Assembly: GCA_029776125.1 (NCBI GenBank)
Contig: JARVJS010000014.1
Coordinates: 1 to 56,945 of the forward strand
Source: Nitrososphaeria archaeon
GTDB lineage: Archaea > Thermoproteota > Nitrososphaeria > JACIWG01
Length of the DNA stretch: 56,945 bases
Reading direction: 5' to 3'
Shown: piece by piece, positions 15,306 to 39,481 of the stretch
How positions within the stretch are numbered: the first letter of the stretch is position 1
Layout of the letters: each line of letters starts with the position of its first letter
Notes under the pieces: model-generated
The model's database searches: none
What the model saw: only the letters and a program-made list of their open reading frames with translations
Told to the model about the DNA's origin: nothing
Made by a program: the position numbers and the translations under genes

Positions 15306-15431
15306 AAGTGTTATTGGGAAACGTGCAATAGTTCCTAAGTGGATCTTAATGTCTTGCTGTATTTTGGCTATATCAACTTAGAATTGGAAAAGTTGACTAG
15401 GCTCAAAGAAAGTAGTGGAAGTAGTATTAAG

Positions 15432-15516
15432 TGCGGGGGGTGGGATTTGAACCCACGAACGCCTACGCGACAGGGTTCTGAGCCCTGCGCCTTTGACCTG
15501 GCTTGGCAACCCCCGC
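15432..15516 (-). tRNA. tRNA-Leu (anticodon CAG)
   Basis: Folded by hand on the minus strand. Acceptor GCGGGGG/CCCCCGC, D arm GCC-AAGCCAGGTCAAA-GGC, anticodon arm CAGGG-CTCAGAA-CCCTG, a 14-nt variable arm, T arm GTGGG-TTCAAAT-CCCAC, discriminator A. Total 85 nt. Confidence 0.9.
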
Positions 15517-16400: not shown

Positions 16401-16499
16401 GCCGGGGTGCCTGAGCGGTCAAAAGGGCCGGCCTCGAGATCTTTCAAGAAAGCCGGTAACGGCCTGTCCGTTGCAAGGGTTCAAATCCCTTCCCCGGCG
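16401..16499 (+). tRNA. tRNA-Ser (anticodon CGA) with a ~12-nt intron at the canonical 37/38 position; integration target of the adjacent element
   Basis: Hand fold. Acceptor GCCGGGG/CCCCGGC, D arm CCT-GAGCGGTCAAA-AGG, anticodon stem CCGGC/GCCGG with loop CTCGAG[ATCTTTCAAGAA]A. An 18-nt variable arm has an AACGG/CCGTT stem. T arm AAGGG-TTCAAAT-CCCTT, discriminator G. Total 99 nt, about 87 nt once spliced. Confidence 0.85.
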
Positions 16500-16500
16500 T
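16485..16500 (+). repeat. attL core (ATCCCTTCCCCGGCGT), part of the tRNA-Ser T arm and acceptor
   Basis: Identical 16-mer at 39466-39481. Confidence 0.7.
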
Positions 16501-16554: not shown

Positions 16555-17730
16555 GTGATGGCTGACATACACTCTTACGCTAGAAGGGTTGCTGCAGTCG
16601 AAGGCCGGCTTCTTGGATCAAACGGGGAGACTGCAGGATCTTTTCTGAAACACCTTCGCGCGAGAGGCTTAACTGACGCCAGACTACACTTTTACGCTAC
16701 AAGACTGTCCAAGATCCTCTGCTTCCTTGACCGCAAAAATCTTAGGCTCCAGGACATTGGAAGAAAGGATGCTGAAGAGTTTCTGGCATGGGTTCTTTCT
16801 CAGCCGTTTAAGGCGTGGACGAAGCACGCTTACGTTCTAGCGTTCAAGAAGCTTGTCTCGTACGCTAAAACAGGCGATTCTGACAACGCTCCCCCTGAAG
16901 TTGCATGGATCAGGCCTCATGCATATTCTAGGGAGGCTGACAAGGAGTCCCGTGCAAGGCCTGAAGCGTTGCTTACAGAAGAGGAGATATTGAAGATCAT
17001 TTCATGCGCTAGGAACTTGAGGGACAGGGCCATGCTCTGGGTTCACTTTGAAGGCGCGCTTAGGCCTGGAGAGCTTCTCACGATGAAGGTTTCGAGTGTA
17101 GAGTTCAGGGACCAATATTGTCTCGTAAGCGTCCACGGCAAAACTGGCTTAAAGCGTCTCCCGCTGGTCATAAGCTTCAGGCCGCTCCTCGACTGGCTCA
17201 ACGTTCACCCGCTAAAAGACGATCCAAGCGCACCACTTTGGGCCAGCCTCTCCCGCTCACGCCATGGAGCCGGCGTCGGATACCAGTATTTCAGGAACAC
17301 GGTTAAAAGGTGCGCTGAAGAAGCCGGCCTAAAGAAGACTGTTTGGCCTTACCTGTTCAGGCACACGCAGCTCACGAGGCTCGCGAAAAAGCTTACCGAA
17401 GCCAAGCTTGCACTGTATGCTGGATGGGTTCAGGGATCCAACATGGCTAAAAAGTATGTTCACTTCAGCGCCAGAGACCTCGAGGAAACGGTTCTAGAAA
17501 TTAATGGGCTCAAGAAGCCTGAAGAAGAGCATTTGAAGCTCCAGCCTAGAATGTGCCCAAGATGCGGCGTCCAAAACAGTCCAGACACTGTAAGATGCTC
17601 ACGATGCGGCCTAGTCCTCGACCACCCGCAGGCAGTCGAAGAGGCTGCAAGAGAGCAGGAGGAGATCGAGTCAATAAAAAGGGAGCTGGAGGAGGTCAAG
17701 GACACCCTCAAACGCATCCTCCAACCCTAA
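16555..17730 (+). CDS. int: Tyrosine recombinase/integrase (XerC/D-like) with C-terminal zinc-ribbon extension
   Basis: 391 aa. N-terminal SAM-like core-binding region, then catalytic-domain blocks GALRPGELLTMK (Arg), LFRHTQLTRL (His-x-x-Arg) and KKYVHFS (Tyr). The tail carries MCPRCGVQNSPDTVRCSRCG. The gene is adjacent to the tRNA att site. Confidence 0.85.
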   Translation: MMADIHSYARRVAAVEGRLLGSNGETAGSFLKHLRARGLTDARLHFYATRLSKILCFLDRKNLRLQDIGRKDAEEFLAWVLSQPFKAWTKHAYVLAFKKLVSYAKTGDSDNAPPEVAWIRPHAYSREADKESRARPEALLTEEEILKIISCARNLRDRAMLWVHFEGALRPGELLTMKVSSVEFRDQYCLVSVHGKTGLKRLPLVISFRPLLDWLNVHPLKDDPSAPLWASLSRSRHGAGVGYQYFRNTVKRCAEEAGLKKTVWPYLFRHTQLTRLAKKLTEAKLALYAGWVQGSNMAKKYVHFSARDLEETVLEINGLKKPEEEHLKLQPRMCPRCGVQNSPDTVRCSRCGLVLDHPQAVEEAAREQEEIESIKRELEEVKDTLKRILQP

Positions 17731-17939
17731 ACCCTCTTTTCAAGCCTCGAAAGACGCTCCTCAATCAACTCGATCCTCCGAACAAGGCTCTCGAGAACAC
17801 TTTTCCGCACAAGAACATGCTCTCCATCCATCAACCAAACCAAAAAGAAAAGCTTAAAAAGAAAAAAGGGGAAACAGCATCCAAAAAACTTAAGCACCTG
17901 CTTAACTTGACAAAAGCATGAAGTGACATTTTGTTGCAA
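17727..17939 (-). CDS. Small hypothetical protein; only the C-terminal ~35 aa coiled-coil part looks credible (ATG at 17831)
   Basis: The sequence from the internal ATG, MDGEHVLVRKSVLESLVRRIELIEERLSRLEKRV, looks helical. The upstream part overlaps repeat DNA. Support is weak. Confidence 0.2.
   Translation of the reverse strand: MQQNVTSCFCQVKQVLKFFGCCFPFFLFKLFFLVWLMDGEHVLVRKSVLESLVRRIELIEERLSRLEKRV
17888..17908 (+). repeat. 21-bp direct repeat copy 1 (ACTTAAGCACCTGCTTAACTT), containing palindrome TTAAGCA-CC-TGCTTAA
   Basis: Exact second copy at 18016-18036. Confidence 0.85.
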
Positions 17940-17982
17940 ACACGACGACTCCAGAATCGACGTAAATGCAACAAAATGTCAC
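17923..17982. repeat. 60-bp hairpin-forming palindrome, copy 1
   Basis: The outer arms are 16-bp perfect complements: GTGACATTTTGTTGCA ... TGCAACAAAATGTCAC. The inner arms are imperfect and carry ACGACGA/TCGACGT. Confidence 0.85.
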
Positions 17983-18015
17983 CTCATGTTATCCTGTACG
18001 CTGGACTGTCAGCAG

Positions 18016-18036
18016 ACTTAAGCACCTGCTTAACTT
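18016..18036 (+). repeat. 21-bp direct repeat copy 2 (ACTTAAGCACCTGCTTAACTT)
   Basis: Exact copy of 17888-17908. Confidence 0.85.
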
Positions 18037-18060
18037 AACCAAAAAAACATTTAACATGAG

Positions 18061-18120
18061 GTAACATTTTGTTGCAAATGCGACGATTCTAGAGTCGTCG
18101 TAAATGCAACAAAATGTTAC
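18061..18120. repeat. 60-bp hairpin-forming palindrome, copy 2
   Basis: GTAACATTTTGTTGCA ... TGCAACAAAATGTTAC. Relative to copy 1, G to A in the left arm is matched by C to T in the right arm, so the symmetry is preserved. Confidence 0.85.
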
Positions 18121-18176
18121 TTCATGGCATGCTTACATTTTTCCTGCTGGGGATAATGTATTCTGTTAAGTTTGCG

Positions 18177-29988: not shown

Positions 29989-30273
29989 TGTCCAGCCAGG
30001 AAGCCTAAACCCCTCTTACGTGGGCTCCACCGTCCAACACCCTCCACTTGGGAGGTTAGCTGGACGGCTTCAACGCCCACGTTTCGGCCCCACCGGGCCA
30101 ACCCCGCACCAGCCTCCCACCCCATGCAGGAAGCATGGGAGAAGAGGAGACTGGAAACGGAGCTCCCATTTCGGGATCGTCAGAGAGGGAATTCCAACTT
30201 AACCCATCCTCTCAACACACTAGTCCACCCAAACCTTCCCCCAAAAAATGGTGGAAAAAGAGGGGAGAGAAAA

Positions 30274-30783
30274 CTAGTCCCACCAGAACCTGTACACAAA
30301 ATACATTCCACTGTCTTCGAAGACACCGAACTCGTCCGCGGAAGCCTTCAACGCAAGCCCATCAAACAGTTCAGCCAACACCAGAAAATCTATTCTTTCA
30401 CCGGAACCAAACTTTGGGACCACAACATATATGACCCTCGACCCCTCGTTTCCCACAACAAACTTGTGCAGCCGACAGCCTCCTCCCATCCGCTGGACAG
30501 CACGGTTTACTTCGGAAACAAGCTCAGTAAGCCCCTCGACAGTGAAACCATTATAGCAGCCAGCACGTTCAACAAACGCGAGCGCCTCCTCCGGAGAAAG
30601 CTCGACAAGAAAGTTGGATGAAACCCTGTCAAGCTGCAGCGCAAGATCAACCCTTCTAGAGAAACCGCTTCCATCTTGGCTGAAGCACATTCTTCCTCCA
30701 AAAAGATGCCGTCTACCGTCCAAGGTCAGCTGCCAGAACATGCGGTCTAACAGTATCAAGCATGCGCTCGAAAACACCATCAT
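30274..30783 (-). CDS. Hypothetical protein (operon member)
   Basis: 169-aa frame on the operon strand. Its 5-prime end overlaps the upstream gene by 70 nt, so the start is probably internal. No motif recognised. Confidence 0.3.
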   Translation of the reverse strand: MMVFSSACLILLDRMFWQLTLDGRRHLFGGRMCFSQDGSGFSRRVDLALQLDRVSSNFLVELSPEEALAFVERAGCYNGFTVEGLTELVSEVNRAVQRMGGGCRLHKFVVGNEGSRVIYVVVPKFGSGERIDFLVLAELFDGLALKASADEFGVFEDSGMYFVYRFWWD

Positions 30784-31423
30784 TCCATCTCCTTACACCA
30801 TCGTATGCCCTGGAAACGGTTTCAAGAAACTCTGCCAGCACATCGGCTGCAGAGGATACAACATTAAACAGTCGACTAAGGTCAACCGCGCTGGAGACAA
30901 CAAGAGAATAGAGAGTTCCATCGGATACAAGATGCAGCAGCCTAACATTATCTGACGAGAAAACAATCTCCGAAACCCGAACACGCTCGAGCACGCCAAA
31001 AGACTGTGAAACAAGAAACTTGGCCCTAGAACATTTAATGCTAGAACAGTCTCCAGAAAACCTCCTGCGCAAGACAACAGGCTTATAGAGTCTAACACGC
31101 CTGCTGAGGCGACAGAGTACAACGAAAGCGTCCCTAACCTGGCTCCTAACACATTCAGCCAAAACCTCACCCTTTCCCCTGACAAGGTTCAGGAAACCGA
31201 ACAGGTCAACCTTGCCGTCGACAGTACTAAAATCCTTTTCAACAAAAACAATCTTCAGCCCACCATCTTCCTCGAACATGACAGCCCGTCTAGAGAGAGA
31301 AAAAGGCTTAAGGTACGAGAAACATTCTACAACCTTCGCTGCCACATTCCTGTTCAAAGCATGCACGTCACACGACTGGAGCATGCCAAAAAGTCTCCTA
31401 GCATCAGAGTCCATCAGGAGCAC
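30713..31423 (-). CDS. Hypothetical protein, paralogue A of 31675..32397
   Basis: 236 aa. Shares VECFSYLKPF / VECFSHLKPF and GEVLAECVRSQVRDAFVVLCRLSRRVRL / GAVLSRYVRPLVRRAFYDLCMLAGRIRL with the 240-aa protein. Conservation between the two copies supports that it is coding. Confidence 0.45.
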   Translation of the reverse strand: MLLMDSDARRLFGMLQSCDVHALNRNVAAKVVECFSYLKPFSLSRRAVMFEEDGGLKIVFVEKDFSTVDGKVDLFGFLNLVRGKGEVLAECVRSQVRDAFVVLCRLSRRVRLYKPVVLRRRFSGDCSSIKCSRAKFLVSQSFGVLERVRVSEIVFSSDNVRLLHLVSDGTLYSLVVSSAVDLSRLFNVVSSAADVLAEFLETVSRAYDGVRRWNDGVFERMLDTVRPHVLAADLGR

Positions 31424-31638
31424 CCTTCCAAGAGAACCTTCCTCGCATCACTTTCACATCGTGCCACAATGCTGCCGCAGACCGGACAACGGTACTCTTG
31501 GTCGTCGACGTCAACAGACTCAATACCATAGTATTCGCCCACACCATCTCTTACAGTGAAGCCGCCGCGCACAAACTCTGTCGCAGAATACTCGAGCTCC
31601 ACAATAAGGCTGCCGCAGAAAGGACACTTTCCCACCAC
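31414..31638 (-). CDS. Small zinc-ribbon protein
   Basis: 74 aa with CPFCGS ... CPVCGS. The gene sits between the two paralogues and overlaps the downstream start by 10 nt. Confidence 0.5.
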   Translation of the reverse strand: MVGKCPFCGSLIVELEYSATEFVRGGFTVRDGVGEYYGIESVDVDDQEYRCPVCGSIVARCESDARKVLLEGCS

Positions 31639-31674: not shown

Positions 31675-32397
31675 CTAAAAGAGTTCCCTGGAAACACGGT
31701 ACGGTTCAACAGTCAACTCCATCTGCTCCAGAACCCGACCATTCTCCTCAAACACTGGAGAAAGCTGCCTCCTCAGCTGCTCAGCAAGTTCAGCGATGAC
31801 GTCAAACAAAAGAGGAAACCGTGCCACCACATCACGCAAATCATAGCATAATCCAATATTGAAAACGTACACCACATCATTCGACAGCACGTAAAAGGTT
31901 CCAGGATCAGACGCATTCAACATGACAGAGTCAACGGAATCCAACCTTATCACAGGAAGCTGCTTACTTGACACAGAAACATACTTGAGCCCACGGTCAG
32001 GAAAGCCCCTGGACAAAACCTTTTCAGCAGAAGCCTCCTCAACAAGCCTTATCCTCCCAGCAAGCATGCAAAGATCATAGAACGCTCTCCTAACAAGCGG
32101 CCTAACGTACCTGGAGAGGACAGCACCATGTTTCCTGACAACGTCAAAAAACTCTTTCCCCAAAACCTCTCCCACAATAAACCTTGTACCATAAACATAG
32201 ATCCTCCGGTCAACCCATGTTCTAACAAAATAGTGTAGGACAACACCATCTTCTTTGACTGGAACAATGAACGGCTTAAGATGCGAGAAACATTCCACAA
32301 TCTTGTCCAAAACCTTCTTCCTGTAAACGCTCAAGTCAACTTCCAAGAGCATACGTTTCACGCGTCTAACATCGTCTTCCAACATAATTTCCCCCAA
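31675..32397 (-). CDS. Hypothetical protein, paralogue B of 30713..31423
   Basis: 240 aa. See the shared blocks listed for paralogue A. Confidence 0.45.
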   Translation of the reverse strand: MGEIMLEDDVRRVKRMLLEVDLSVYRKKVLDKIVECFSHLKPFIVPVKEDGVVLHYFVRTWVDRRIYVYGTRFIVGEVLGKEFFDVVRKHGAVLSRYVRPLVRRAFYDLCMLAGRIRLVEEASAEKVLSRGFPDRGLKYVSVSSKQLPVIRLDSVDSVMLNASDPGTFYVLSNDVVYVFNIGLCYDLRDVVARFPLLFDVIAELAEQLRRQLSPVFEENGRVLEQMELTVEPYRVSRELF

Positions 32398-32408: not shown

Positions 32409-32678
32409 CTAGTCGAAGTTGAACAGCAGAAAGTATGCTGGAGCAACAACAAGCAGCCCTATCGCACCAAACACTGCAGCATAAACTTTGACGGGATCAA
32501 ACACTGGAGGCATAAAGCATCCAAGCAGTCCGTCGACAACAAACCATCTTGGAAAATACTTGTCTGGAGCAAGGAAAACATCGAATGAAAAGAGTATACT
32601 GTAGGCGGACAAGACGGCGATGGCAGCGGTTACAAGGAGAACGTTAGCCTTAACCTTCAATGCAACCATCCCCTCCAA
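32409..32678 (-). CDS. Small membrane protein (2-3 TM helices)
   Basis: 89 aa, strongly hydrophobic (LLVTAAIAVLSAYSILFSF, AAVFGAIGLLVVAPAYFLLF). Lies directly downstream of the ParB-like gene. Confidence 0.4.
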   Translation of the reverse strand: MEGMVALKVKANVLLVTAAIAVLSAYSILFSFDVFLAPDKYFPRWFVVDGLLGCFMPPVFDPVKVYAAVFGAIGLLVVAPAYFLLFNFD

Positions 32679-32717: not shown

Positions 32718-34199
32718 TCAGACAACATTGTCCTTGACTAGAAAAGTTTTCCCGCAGAAGGGGCATCTTACAACAAGATCCTCCTTAAACTTAAGCAGCC
32801 TCTCGAGCTCCGCAACCCTTGCCCTTAGAACATCAATTTCTTTTCTAGCGTAAGCCAAGTCCGTTTCCACGGAAACAGTGTCACGTGCAGCCTCCCTAGC
32901 CTTCCTTATCTCCCACAGCGCATCATCCAAGCTCATGACGTTAACAAGCTCAACAATCCTACGCTTCTCCTCCTCACTAAAGTCTCCCTTAACAAATTCT
33001 TCGGCGAGACGGAACGCTATACCTCTTCTGGAGGGAATGAGGCCGTTGAAGATGAAACCGTGTTTGGCGTTAAGTTCATCAAACTTCCTGCTCATGAACT
33101 CTTCTGCAGCCTTAAGCGCCTGCTTCGGATCAATGCCGCGGTACACTTGATCAACAACCATCTTGGTCTCGCTGCTGGTAAGCCCCTTTTCCCTGACAGC
33201 GTATGCGATCTCCTTAACAGCATCAGGCTTATCCTTTATCTTAAGAAGCTCCTCCGCATGCGATGGGGTGAGGAAGCCCCTGGGCTTGGAGACAGAAGCC
33301 CCCTTATCCAGCCCACCTTCTCTGACACCGTCTACGGCAACAAAATTGTGCCCTGGGGCACAATTTCCCGCTCCAGTCTCCTGCAACGGTACAGAATTTA
33401 GGTTAACCAAATTGTGCGGTAACGCACAATTTTCCGCCCTAGTCTGTCCAAAGTAGTCTCCAACAGAATTTTGCGCTGGCGCAAAATTTCCTGCTCCAGC
33501 ATCATGCGATGGCACAGGATTTAGGTTAACCAAATTTTGCCGTACGGCAAAATTTTCTGCCCTAACCTGCTCCAAACCATCTCCGTCAGCCTTCCTCCTG
33601 TCAATCTCCCTCTGAAGCCTCCTCTCGAAGTCTTCTTCAAGCATTTTCTGCACCTCCTCCGGAAGGTCAAGAAACTGTATCCTGCGGACAACGTAGCTGC
33701 AGTCTTTCCCAATCTTGTTGGCGAGGTCGGTGACCGAACCCCAGCCGAACTCTTCAACATACCTTTTGAAGGCTCTAGCCTCTTCCATTGGACTAAGCTG
33801 CTTACGCTGAACATTTTCAACCAACGCTATCTCGAAAGCGTCCCTGTCATCCAGTCCATCGTGTACAATACACAGCGCCTCTTCCACGCCAAGCGTCTTC
33901 AACGCATTATATCTTCTCCATCCGCAGACAAGCTCGTACCCGCTTCCAGCCTTCCTGACAGTAAGCGGGTTAAGAAGCCCCTTCCTTCGAATACTTTCAG
34001 CAAGCTCGTCTATCCTGCCAAGAGATGACCTCAAAAGAAACCTTGGAGCACTGATTTCCGAAAGCCTAAGATATCTGATCTGAGATGAAACAGCCTTCTG
34101 CATACAGCATCCTCCAAAAAAGGTGGAAAAGACTCCGTCACCATTCCCGCATACTGTTGGGAAAGTAGAAGGCGACAGCCAGAACAAGGCATACTCCAA
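32718..34199 (-). CDS. ParB/Srx-domain protein with HTH, an internal 41-aa tandem repeat, coiled coil and C-terminal zinc-ribbon-like end
   Basis: ParB N-terminal blocks are LRLSEISAPRF, GLLNPLTVRKAGSGYELVCGWRRYNALKTLG and ALVENVQRKQLSPMEEA. HTH: LANKIGKDCSYVVRRIQFLDLPEEVQ. The C-terminal end has RCPFCGKTF. The likely start is the ATG at 34103 (MQKAVSS). Confidence 0.7.
   Translation of the reverse strand: MEYALFWLSPSTFPTVCGNGDGVFSTFFGGCCMQKAVSSQIRYLRLSEISAPRFLLRSSLGRIDELAESIRRKGLLNPLTVRKAGSGYELVCGWRRYNALKTLGVEEALCIVHDGLDDRDAFEIALVENVQRKQLSPMEEARAFKRYVEEFGWGSVTDLANKIGKDCSYVVRRIQFLDLPEEVQKMLEEDFERRLQREIDRRKADGDGLEQVRAENFAVRQNLVNLNPVPSHDAGAGNFAPAQNSVGDYFGQTRAENCALPHNLVNLNSVPLQETGAGNCAPGHNFVAVDGVREGGLDKGASVSKPRGFLTPSHAEELLKIKDKPDAVKEIAYAVREKGLTSSETKMVVDQVYRGIDPKQALKAAEEFMSRKFDELNAKHGFIFNGLIPSRRGIAFRLAEEFVKGDFSEEEKRRIVELVNVMSLDDALWEIRKAREAARDTVSVETDLAYARKEIDVLRARVAELERLLKFKEDLVVRCPFCGKTFLVKDNVV
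33343..33555. repeat. Four 22-24-bp palindromes in a ~123-bp tandem duplication inside the ParB-like ORF (candidate parS-like centromere)
   Basis: P1 33343-33366 AAATTGTGCCC-TG-GGGCACAATTT. P2 33409-33432 AAATTGTGCG-GTAA-CGCACAATTT. P3 33467-33488 AATTTTGCGC-TG-GCGCAAAATT. P4 33532-33555 AAATTTTGCCGTACGGCAAAATTT. A TTAGGTTAACCAAAT spacer precedes P2 and P4. Confidence 0.9.
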
Positions 34200-39465: not shown

Positions 39466-39481
39466 ATCCCTTCCCCGGCGT
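39466..39481 (+). repeat. attR core (ATCCCTTCCCCGGCGT), displaced tRNA-Ser 3-prime fragment
   Basis: Identical 16-mer at 16485-16500. Host-like AT-rich core genes resume downstream. Confidence 0.7.

Follow-up and report, generated by a model that had tools for sequence, protein, structure and literature searches.

Canonical ParB-parS biology is considered essentially bacterial. In Bacillus subtilis one loading site, parS-359, lies within the parB gene, so that in-gene parS is already known (PMC4442127). In the Caulobacter ParB-parS complex the helices α4, α6 and α8 make the DNA contacts, and R173 in α4 together with residue 201 in α6 sets the specificity for parS or the Noc-binding site (NBS) (PMC7383237). 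Chromosomal ParABS is generally absent from archaea, where a 2025 survey records many 'orphan' ParBs of uncharacterised function (PMC12704722), and the ParB-like genes of thaumarchaeal mobile elements have no cis site described (PMC6563490); the literature searched describes no parS for a canonical archaeal ParB. The present study concerns a 56,945-nt contig of a Nitrososphaeria archaeon (GenBank JARVJS010000014.1), referred to in its entirety as the window, in which a parB-like gene on an integrated mobile element holds four long palindromes inside its coding sequence. We infer that these palindromes are probably parS-like duplex loading sites, cognate to and bound by the orphan ParB that the gene encodes, and the gene family thus supplies a concrete archaeal candidate site.

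Palindromes within the parB gene

The parB-like gene starts at an ATG at 34103 with GGAGG 8 nt upstream. All orthologous proteins begin with MQK or VQK, and an identical 461-aa protein is annotated by NCBI as 'ParB/RepB/Spo0J, Nitrososphaeria archaeon'; the length of 493 aa given in the original prediction is therefore replaced by 461 aa. The four palindromes of 22-24 bp, designated P1 to P4, occupy exactly the interval 33343-33555 previously claimed for them, and the proposed ~123-bp tandem duplication is recovered as two 123-nt units. The motif said to stand ahead of each second palindrome is likewise present, as copies centred on GGTTAACC that precede P2 and P4. P4 (gene nt 549-572) is the positional counterpart of the single site of the orthologues. 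Table 1 lists the features with their positions.

Table 1. Coordinates of features in the window, counted from its first letter
Feature	Position	Strand	Details
tRNA gene	16401-16499	plus	integration target; Rfam 47.6 bits, missed by ARAGORN
attL	16485-16500		3' 16 nt of the tRNA gene
Tyrosine integrase of the element	16555-17730	plus	
89-aa predicted membrane protein	32409-32678	minus	immediately downstream of parB
parB-like gene	32718-34103	minus	461 aa; holds all four palindromes
CPFCG	32751-32765	minus	codons 447-451; invariant, single, after 48-residue helix 392-439
α8, GLTSSETKMVV	33153-33185	minus	codons 307-317; counterpart of LSVRDTE in canonical ParB
Insertion	33282-33584	minus	codons 174-274; between α5 (LPEEVQKMLEEDFE) and α6 (GFLTPSHAEELL)
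Tandem duplication	33338-33460 and 33461-33583		two 123-nt units, 77% identical, two palindromes per unit
P1	33343-33366		AAATTGTGCCC tg GGGCACAATTT; TTGTGC subtype; encodes GNCAPGHNF
Weak palindrome centred on GGTTAACC	33398-33411		overlaps P2 arm; peptide NLVNLN; second copy 33521-33534
P2	33409-33432		AAATTGTGCG gtaa CGCACAATTT; TTGTGC subtype; encodes ENCALPHNL
P3	33467-33488		AATTTTGCGC tg GCGCAAAATT; TTTTGC subtype; encodes GNFAPAQNS
P3 with flanking g/t	33466-33489		gAATTTTGCGC tg GCGCAAAATTt
P4	33532-33555		perfect 24-mer, AAATTTTGCCGT followed by ACGGCAAAATTT; TTTTGC subtype; encodes ENFAVRQNL
Recognition helix α4 within the helix-turn-helix (HTH), GKDCSYVVRRIQ	33675-33710	minus	codons 132-143
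GWRRYNA, box II (GxxRxxA) for binding cytidine triphosphate (CTP)	33903-33923	minus	codons 61-67
attR	39466-39481	plus	direct repeat (16 nt, ATCCCTTCCCCGGCGT) matching the tRNA 3' end

The sites are confined to the gene. The pattern AAATTKTGC-N(0-8)-GCAMAATTT has three matches in the window and none in 100 shuffles, and the 57-kb window holds no extra copy of any site, of the 18-bp core (≤3 mismatches) or of the 12-nt half-site, except for one chance half-site with one mismatch. Searches of the whole element, of the host DNA on either side and of the surroundings of related loci, with ~100 kb of related contigs covered, find no other copies, and all sites in all lineages lie within the parB open reading frame (ORF).

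The comparative analysis covers a family of ~22 protein clusters, with DNA obtained for 10 lineages and 12 gene copies (the window, L082 and L002-L011). Each of the ten lineages carries one to four perfect or near-perfect palindromes of 24-28 bp at the same gene position (nt ~550-605); most have a single site, some carry a second and the window carries four, and the 17 occurrences in the 12 copies all share one codon phase. The half-sites (Table 2) follow the consensus AAAT[TG][TG]TNC[CG]N[CT]. The core of the L007 site, TGTTCCACGTGGAACA, shares 15 of 16 positions with TGTTCCACGTGAAACA, the consensus parS of B. subtilis (PMC7614844), and the comparison of L006 with the consensus (TGTTNCACGTGAAACA) gives 6 of 8 positions per half-site. 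Outside the family, GTDB species representatives yield a single match, to an unrelated Desulfovibrionaceae ParB N-domain, and the IMG/VR matches are confined to the N-domain at ≤40% identity and include no orthologue. Scanning IMG/VR with the palindrome pattern returns 9 isolated matches, all outside the contigs recovered there as relatives of ParB.

Table 2. Half-sites, written from the outer end to the centre, with the recognition-helix residues and site position 8
Gene copy	Half-sites	α4 residues after GK	Site position 8
Window	AAATTTTGCCGT, AAATTTTGCGCC, AAATTGTGCGkT, AAATTGTGCCCy	DCS..RR	G
L082	GAATTTTGyGTC, AArTTTTGCCAC	DVS..RR	G
L003/L011	AAATGTTGCGCy	NKS..RR (L003)	G (L003)
L002	AAATTTTCCCAy, AAATGTTCCCCy	YPS..QR	C
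L004/L005	AAATTTTTCCCC, AAATGTTyCCAy	SPA..LR (L004)	T (L004)
L006	AAATTGTTCCCC	KHT..LR	T
L007	AAATTGTTCCAC	KHT..LR	T
L008	AAATTGTACCTT	RHP..LR	A
L009/L010	AAATTGTACCCC	RHP..LR (L010)	A (L010)

Covariation between the arms was assessed on 15 distinct sites, using 500 shuffles and slid registers as controls. Complementarity is found in 95% of mirror cells, compared with 75% in the shuffles and 33-56% in the slid registers. Changes in both arms occur in 7 of the 12 mirror pairs, and double-change cells number 32 against 10.3 expected, a count reached by none of the shuffles. In close pairs each in-site substitution is mirrored in the opposite arm: the sites of L006 and L007 (93.4% nucleotide identity) differ only at mirror positions 565/568, those of L010 and L006 only at 562/571, and those of L010 and L008 only at 565-568, with CCGG replaced by TTAA. 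The encoded site peptide shifts radically, from SPGN to STWN and from TPGY to TLRY; the palindrome itself remains perfect in lineages whose proteins are 54-99% identical. On this comparative evidence the dyad symmetry is under selection at the DNA level and the encoded peptide is not. The expectation that homologues would keep the symmetry through compensatory changes in both arms while the peptide drifts is thereby borne out.

Compensatory changes in both arms would likewise mark selection on a stem, and the palindromes could accordingly be read as parB mRNA hairpins, or as hairpins or cruciforms of single-stranded DNA, instead of a duplex ParB site. Such structures might influence translation or elongation, the stability of the mRNA or premature termination, or else provide a structure-specific signal. 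The coding-strand RNA is predicted to fold into four 10-11-bp hairpins, with a minimum free energy of -105 kcal/mol compared with -74.7 kcal/mol for shuffles (z = -6.3), the coding-strand arms finish in T runs, and the four window sites, each self-complementary, are not alike. Because the coding-strand RNA can form these four hairpins, folding cannot discriminate between duplex and hairpin. The symmetry runs through the centre of the sites: seven sites are perfect without any loop, and 14 of the 15 sites are complementary at mirror pair 11/14, with four pair types. Since this pair covaries although a hairpin would need an impossible 2-nt loop to form it, recognition of a duplex by a symmetric dimer is favoured. 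The non-central mismatches (two G-U, two A-C, one U-C) show no sense-strand G-U bias, and Rfam returns nothing relevant at the gathering threshold, nor at E up to 10 on 33200-33700. Hairpins also leave unexplained the 15/16 parS match and the co-variation of the sites with the DNA-contacting helices of ParB, described below. The regulatory mRNA structure that has been reported for Caulobacter parB (bioRxiv 10.64898/2026.07.07.737113) lies instead at the transcript's 5' end. Taken together, a hairpin function is an unlikely account of the palindromes.

The ParB protein and the candidate reader of the sites

Judged from its sequence, the window protein is a ParB with its CTP-binding motifs intact. 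Its domain order comprises ParB_N with the CTP boxes, the HTH, an insertion, the remaining DNA-binding domain, a long helix and CPFCG. Pfam recognises ParB_N (PF02195, E = 1.2e-14) and HTH_ParB (PF17762, E = 3.7e-13), and the NCBIfam ParB domain TIGR00180 scores 104 bits with a cut-off of 58. The protein does not belong to Noc as defined by NCBIfam (TIGR04285, 132.6 bits with a cut-off of 315), and the Pfam KorB domain stays below its threshold (16.8 vs 22.3 bits). Across 21 sequences the box II residues G61, W62, R63, R64, N66 and A67 are invariant and Y65 is nearly so, and the ENVQR core (E96-R100, the ENxQR box) of ENVQRKQLSPMEEA is also invariant; the CTP boxes can be aligned to those of Thermus and Myxococcus ParB. 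The best structural matches found by Foldseek are ParB, Noc and KorB.

The two ends of the protein have their own features. The N-terminus starts 5 residues ahead of the first beta strand, with no extension for a ParA-activating peptide. In the AlphaFold2 model the C-terminus is helical, followed by the 48-residue helix and a beta hairpin bearing the single CPFCG. A Pfam scan finds no C-terminal ParB domain, and the C-terminus is not of the ParB dimerisation type. The family is tiny, and among 1.84 billion representative proteins no more than 2 clusters have the C-terminal half. A single CxxC behind a long helix resembles the Rad50 zinc hook and suggests CPFCG as a candidate hook-like dimerisation motif that would share zinc.

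The region housing the sites had been described as a duplicated linker between the ParB/HTH module and the C-terminal coiled coil. It proves instead to be a clade-specific insertion inside the ParB DNA-binding domain, a revision that follows from four lines of evidence. In the AlphaFold2 model, residues 174-274 have a predicted local distance difference test score of ~23 and lack secondary structure, with confident structure on both sides. Residues 276-333 (GFLTPSHAEELL...GLTSSETKMVV) match the second half of the DNA-binding domain of Myxococcus ParB (GSLSMGHARALL...KLSVRDTERLV). Foldseek alignments to Noc and ParB bridge the gap, running over ~320 columns against targets of ~200 residues and covering both domain halves across the insertion, which recovers a ParB-type HTH domain. 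The nearest outgroup ParBs, L135 and L136, are contiguous at this point (LPxD[VI]...PSxAxELL), with neither the insertion nor a long palindrome.

The insertion coincides nearly exactly with the duplicated region. Within the clade it measures 58-115 aa and contains 1, 2 or 4 sites; its DNA outside the sites is not alignable among orthologues, and the flanks are 66-78% identical. Its sole invariant residue is an Asn, encoded by the AAT of the palindrome arm. The locus thus offers an example of overlapping codes, in which a protein loop is apparently kept mainly to hold a cis-acting DNA site, and a cis site borne on such a loop would therefore guarantee linkage between DNA-binding specificity and target.

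Examining where closely related proteins differ is informative about which protein reads the sites. Outside the insertion the ingroup proteins share 85-99% identity, and their most variable columns include 134, 135, 136, 139 and 140 in the recognition helix α4 and 285, 288 and 310 in α6/α8. By alignment and our own mapping, residue 135 would be the counterpart of Caulobacter R173 and residue 281 that of G201. The α4 residues vary with site position 8 (Table 2), and the α8 dipeptide at 310-311 is [KR]E where position 11 of the first site is C and IA where it is A or T, in 9 of 9 ingroup lineages, an association for which the tree implies at least 3-4 independent switches. The mosaic gene P0007 combines the α4 helix and insertion of P0003 with the termini of P0009/P0010, showing that helix and site travel together. 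The pattern has the appearance of a recognition code, in which α4 residues 134-140 correspond to site position 8 and α8 residues 310-311 to position 11.

These associations bear on a further explanation, in which the palindromes would be operators lodged by coincidence in a tolerant loop of parB and bound by another dimeric DNA-binding protein, such as an HTH or winged HTH protein, encoded by the element or the host. The element and related backbones do encode several HTH proteins, and central site positions vary without a change in the recognition helix between L006 and L007. Against this, only parB and the small membrane protein are co-inherited with the sites across lineages, the backbones differ while the site remains with parB, the variable residues in ParB's own α4, α6 and α8 track the site, and the site family resembles parS/NBS. 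We consider a separate reader of this kind decidedly improbable.

Palindromic elements of Rickettsia insert in frame into genes. The present insertion, which is disordered, hypervariable and unequal in length and number of sites, might also be a relic of a selfish palindromic element, in frame in a tolerant loop, devoid of cis function and made symmetric by hairpin-templated repair, but this is very improbable, considering that no dispersed copies occur in the window or the related contigs, that the sites are perfect across the whole range of protein identity whereas a decaying relic would erode, that centre positions beyond hairpin templating covary too, and that the sites co-vary with the DNA-binding helices.

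Three other candidates were rejected. A recombinase core site of dif or att type is contradicted by an att that is the tRNA 3' end, and by perfect palindromes that lack an asymmetric 6-8-bp overlap and co-vary with ParB. A replication origin or iterons were set aside as the principal explanation, as most lineages have a single site and the hairpin repeats at 17917-18133 are a better origin candidate. A -1 frameshift signal (A_AAT_TTT plus hairpin) was discarded because the heptamer belongs to the stem and is missing from the TTGT and TGTT variants.

The sites are thus most likely ParB's own docking sites, because the symmetry is kept despite free change of the peptide and the sites change together with the DNA-reading helices. 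A ParB dimer would read each 24-bp dyad-symmetric duplex through α4 and α6/α8, as bacterial ParB reads parS. A CTP-dependent clamp would close at the sites, as is expected from the retention of all CTP-binding boxes, and then slide onto flanking DNA, where spreading may build a higher-order ParB-DNA complex on the ~23-kb element. Such a complex could serve the maintenance or positioning of the excised element, the silencing and autoregulation of the parB cassette, or both. The sites would be 'parked' in frame in the disordered, sequence-tolerant insertion, ~130 nt from the recognition-helix codons, and specificity determinant and site would therefore be inherited or recombined as one unit. Site and specificity could then co-diversify, plausibly escaping incompatibility with related elements.

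Several observations weigh against the reading as a ParB loading site or limit its reach. The associations between helices and sites rest on ~10 phylogenetically related lineages, and at the sequence level α6-α8 align weakly with canonical ParB, the main support for this alignment coming from the Foldseek span. The window sites match the canonical parS consensus at ~3/8 positions per half-site, keeping T..T.C. They also differ among themselves at positions 6, 10, 11 and 12, each remaining self-symmetric while facing one protein; independent reading of half-sites is accordingly not a full explanation, which leaves room for partial hairpin-templated symmetrisation or a cruciform requirement. With regard to a ParABS role, no ParA gene is recognised among the element ORFs scanned, and the protein has neither an N-terminal ParA peptide nor a ParB dimerisation C-domain, the C-terminus being unrelated; these absences make a classical ParABS centromere role doubtful. 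A ParB loading site may also have uses other than partition, the 'centromere' function.

The mobile element and its cassette

The chromosomal part of the window has a G+C content (GC) of 30% and includes genes for primase, GINS, PCNA, eIF2α, AglB and Hef. This Nitrososphaeria chromosome is interrupted by an island of 47% GC extending from ~16.4 to 39.5 kb (~23 kb), whose right border lies at attR, within ~0.5 kb of the drop in GC (~38.9 kb). The integrase stands beside the target tRNA gene, 16-nt repeats mark the two ends, and the island is compositionally distinct, the features of a tRNA-integrated archaeal mobile element. These combined features place parB on a ~23-kb element of that type, in agreement with its earlier assignment to an archaeal element. 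No capsid or conjugation genes are recognised among the element ORFs scanned, which agrees with the thaumarchaeal class of 'cryptic integrated elements' (PMC6563490). The target tRNA gene is 99 nt long, a length that suggests an intron or a long variable arm. A tRNA-Leu gene at 15431-15516 was rejected as the integration target, as no att was found around it and the separate second tRNA gene is the real target.

Searches with Pfam, PHROGs and NCBIfam find no ParA among the larger ORFs of the element, and none is found in related loci; several element proteins are unannotated and may include a non-canonical partner, and those of 583, 336, 240 and 236 aa have no PHROGs or NCBIfam annotation. The 89-aa membrane protein is the only neighbour of parB kept in L004, L005, L007, L008 and L010 (47-51% identity) and is possibly a functional partner, for example a membrane tether. 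The segment 30493-34348 is 99.87% identical over 3.9 kb to 6529-10384 of L084, a second assembly, while the backbones are otherwise unrelated. This identity inside different backbones indicates that a parB cassette moves between elements by recent modular exchange. Besides parB, the cassette encodes the 89-aa membrane protein, a zinc-ribbon protein of 73 aa and two proteins of 236 and 233 aa; the breakpoint was located 245 bp upstream of the ATG of parB. Directly downstream of parB, two minus-strand ORFs of similar length, 236 and 240 aa, without detectable domains (30713-31423 and 31675-32397) flank the zinc-ribbon ORF at 31414-31638.

A more specific proposal is a self-contained, ParA-independent, one-gene cassette of archaeal mobile elements for centromere or silencing functions, with a CTPase ParB, sites present only in its own gene, dimerisation through a coiled coil and a CPFCG hook sharing zinc, and tethering by the membrane protein. 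We offer this proposal tentatively, as a possibility that falls short of an even chance. If true, it would provide a canonical archaeal ParB with a native parS for the first time, and with it a natural set of orthogonal, thermophile-derived ParB/parS pairs. The family comprises ~eight distinct natural pairs of ParB and site among near-identical proteins, which are potential orthogonal tools for DNA labelling and tethering.

Further observations concern the surroundings of the gene. Just past the integrase, 17888-18133 holds two tandem units of ~130 nt, each containing a 72-bp imperfect palindrome with arms of 36 nt (CATGAGGTAACATTTTGTTGCAAATGCGACGATTCT and AGAGTCGTCG...). The same 72-bp hairpin occurs once in L084 (4146-4240, 88-93% identical), in a backbone that is otherwise unrelated, and the repeats are a candidate origin, terminator or non-coding RNA. 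About 2.5 kb downstream of parB lies a G-rich non-coding stretch (window 30005-30200 on the minus strand, L004 12545-12770, L007 7324-7549), which is ~73% identical although the adjacent genes barely align. RNAalifold predicts nested helices with four compensatory pairs changed on both sides, and Rfam gives no match; with three informative sequences only, the stretch is a candidate element-borne non-coding RNA. A few kb upstream of parB, related elements encode HTH_17 proteins and one or two further proteins of 320-372 aa that have ParB_N but lack the ParB HTH (ParB_N-only loci: L084 1874-2836 and 5081-6199; L004 7454-8461; also L006, L007 and L010); the window element has none. A second family of 24-bp palindromes, AAAGCGTCCGCT followed by AGCGGACGCTTT, occurs near parB in L006 (12680-12703 and 12771-12794) and L011 (7435-7458) and is absent from the window.

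Comparison with described systems

The characterised DNA-segregation modules of archaea, plasmid-borne or chromosomal, are AspA-ParB-ParA of pNOB8 and SegAB of Sulfolobus. The N-domain of pNOB8 ParB is a distant structural match to the window protein (5k5a/5k5d, E ~1e-4). In pNOB8, however, it is the adaptor AspA that binds the centromere, and ParB, with a C-domain resembling CenpA, acts together with ParA (PMC7333895). The present ParB has a canonical HTH of its own, and no AspA, ParA or SegA is present.

Thaumarchaeal integrated elements resemble the present one in their ParB-like genes, tRNA integration, tyrosine integrases and short att repeats (PMC6563490). The ParBs of thaumarchaeal integrative and conjugative elements are coupled to TFIIB genes, in contrast to the present element, where none is seen. 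KorB-OB of plasmid RK2 and other ParB-family CTP clamps with a regulatory use, such as BisD, are similar in being ParB-fold CTPases with an HTH, a mobile-element setting and a palindromic operator, with regulation instead of segregation as a possible use, and Foldseek matches the window protein to the KorB structures 8qa8 and 8qa9. KorB differs in that its sites lie in promoters, whereas the present sites are in the gene, and no KorA or IncC partners are seen here.

The closest bacterial parallel is the B. subtilis ParB (Spo0J) with parS-359, which likewise combines CTP boxes, an HTH and a palindromic loading site in its own coding sequence. The present system differs from it in having an archaeal host, a location on an integrative mobile element and no ParA. 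Its sites are 24-28 bp long with AAAT...ATTT extensions, number 1-4 per gene and are the only copies found, compared with ~10 parS around oriC in B. subtilis. They occupy a disordered insertion dedicated to them within the DNA-binding domain. The protein also has an unrelated C-terminal domain, and site and recognition helix diversify fast among close relatives.

With regard to specificity, ParB and Noc show that a few residues of α4 and α6 set the preference for a half-site (R173, T179, A184 and G201 in Caulobacter; PMC7383237). The present family is alike in that the columns that vary belong to the equivalent helices and change with site positions 8 and 11, and some of its sites resemble NBS, for example TTTTTCCCCGGGGAAAAA in L004. 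ParB and Noc are old paralogues, whereas the diversification described here has taken place among orthologues that are 85-99% identical.

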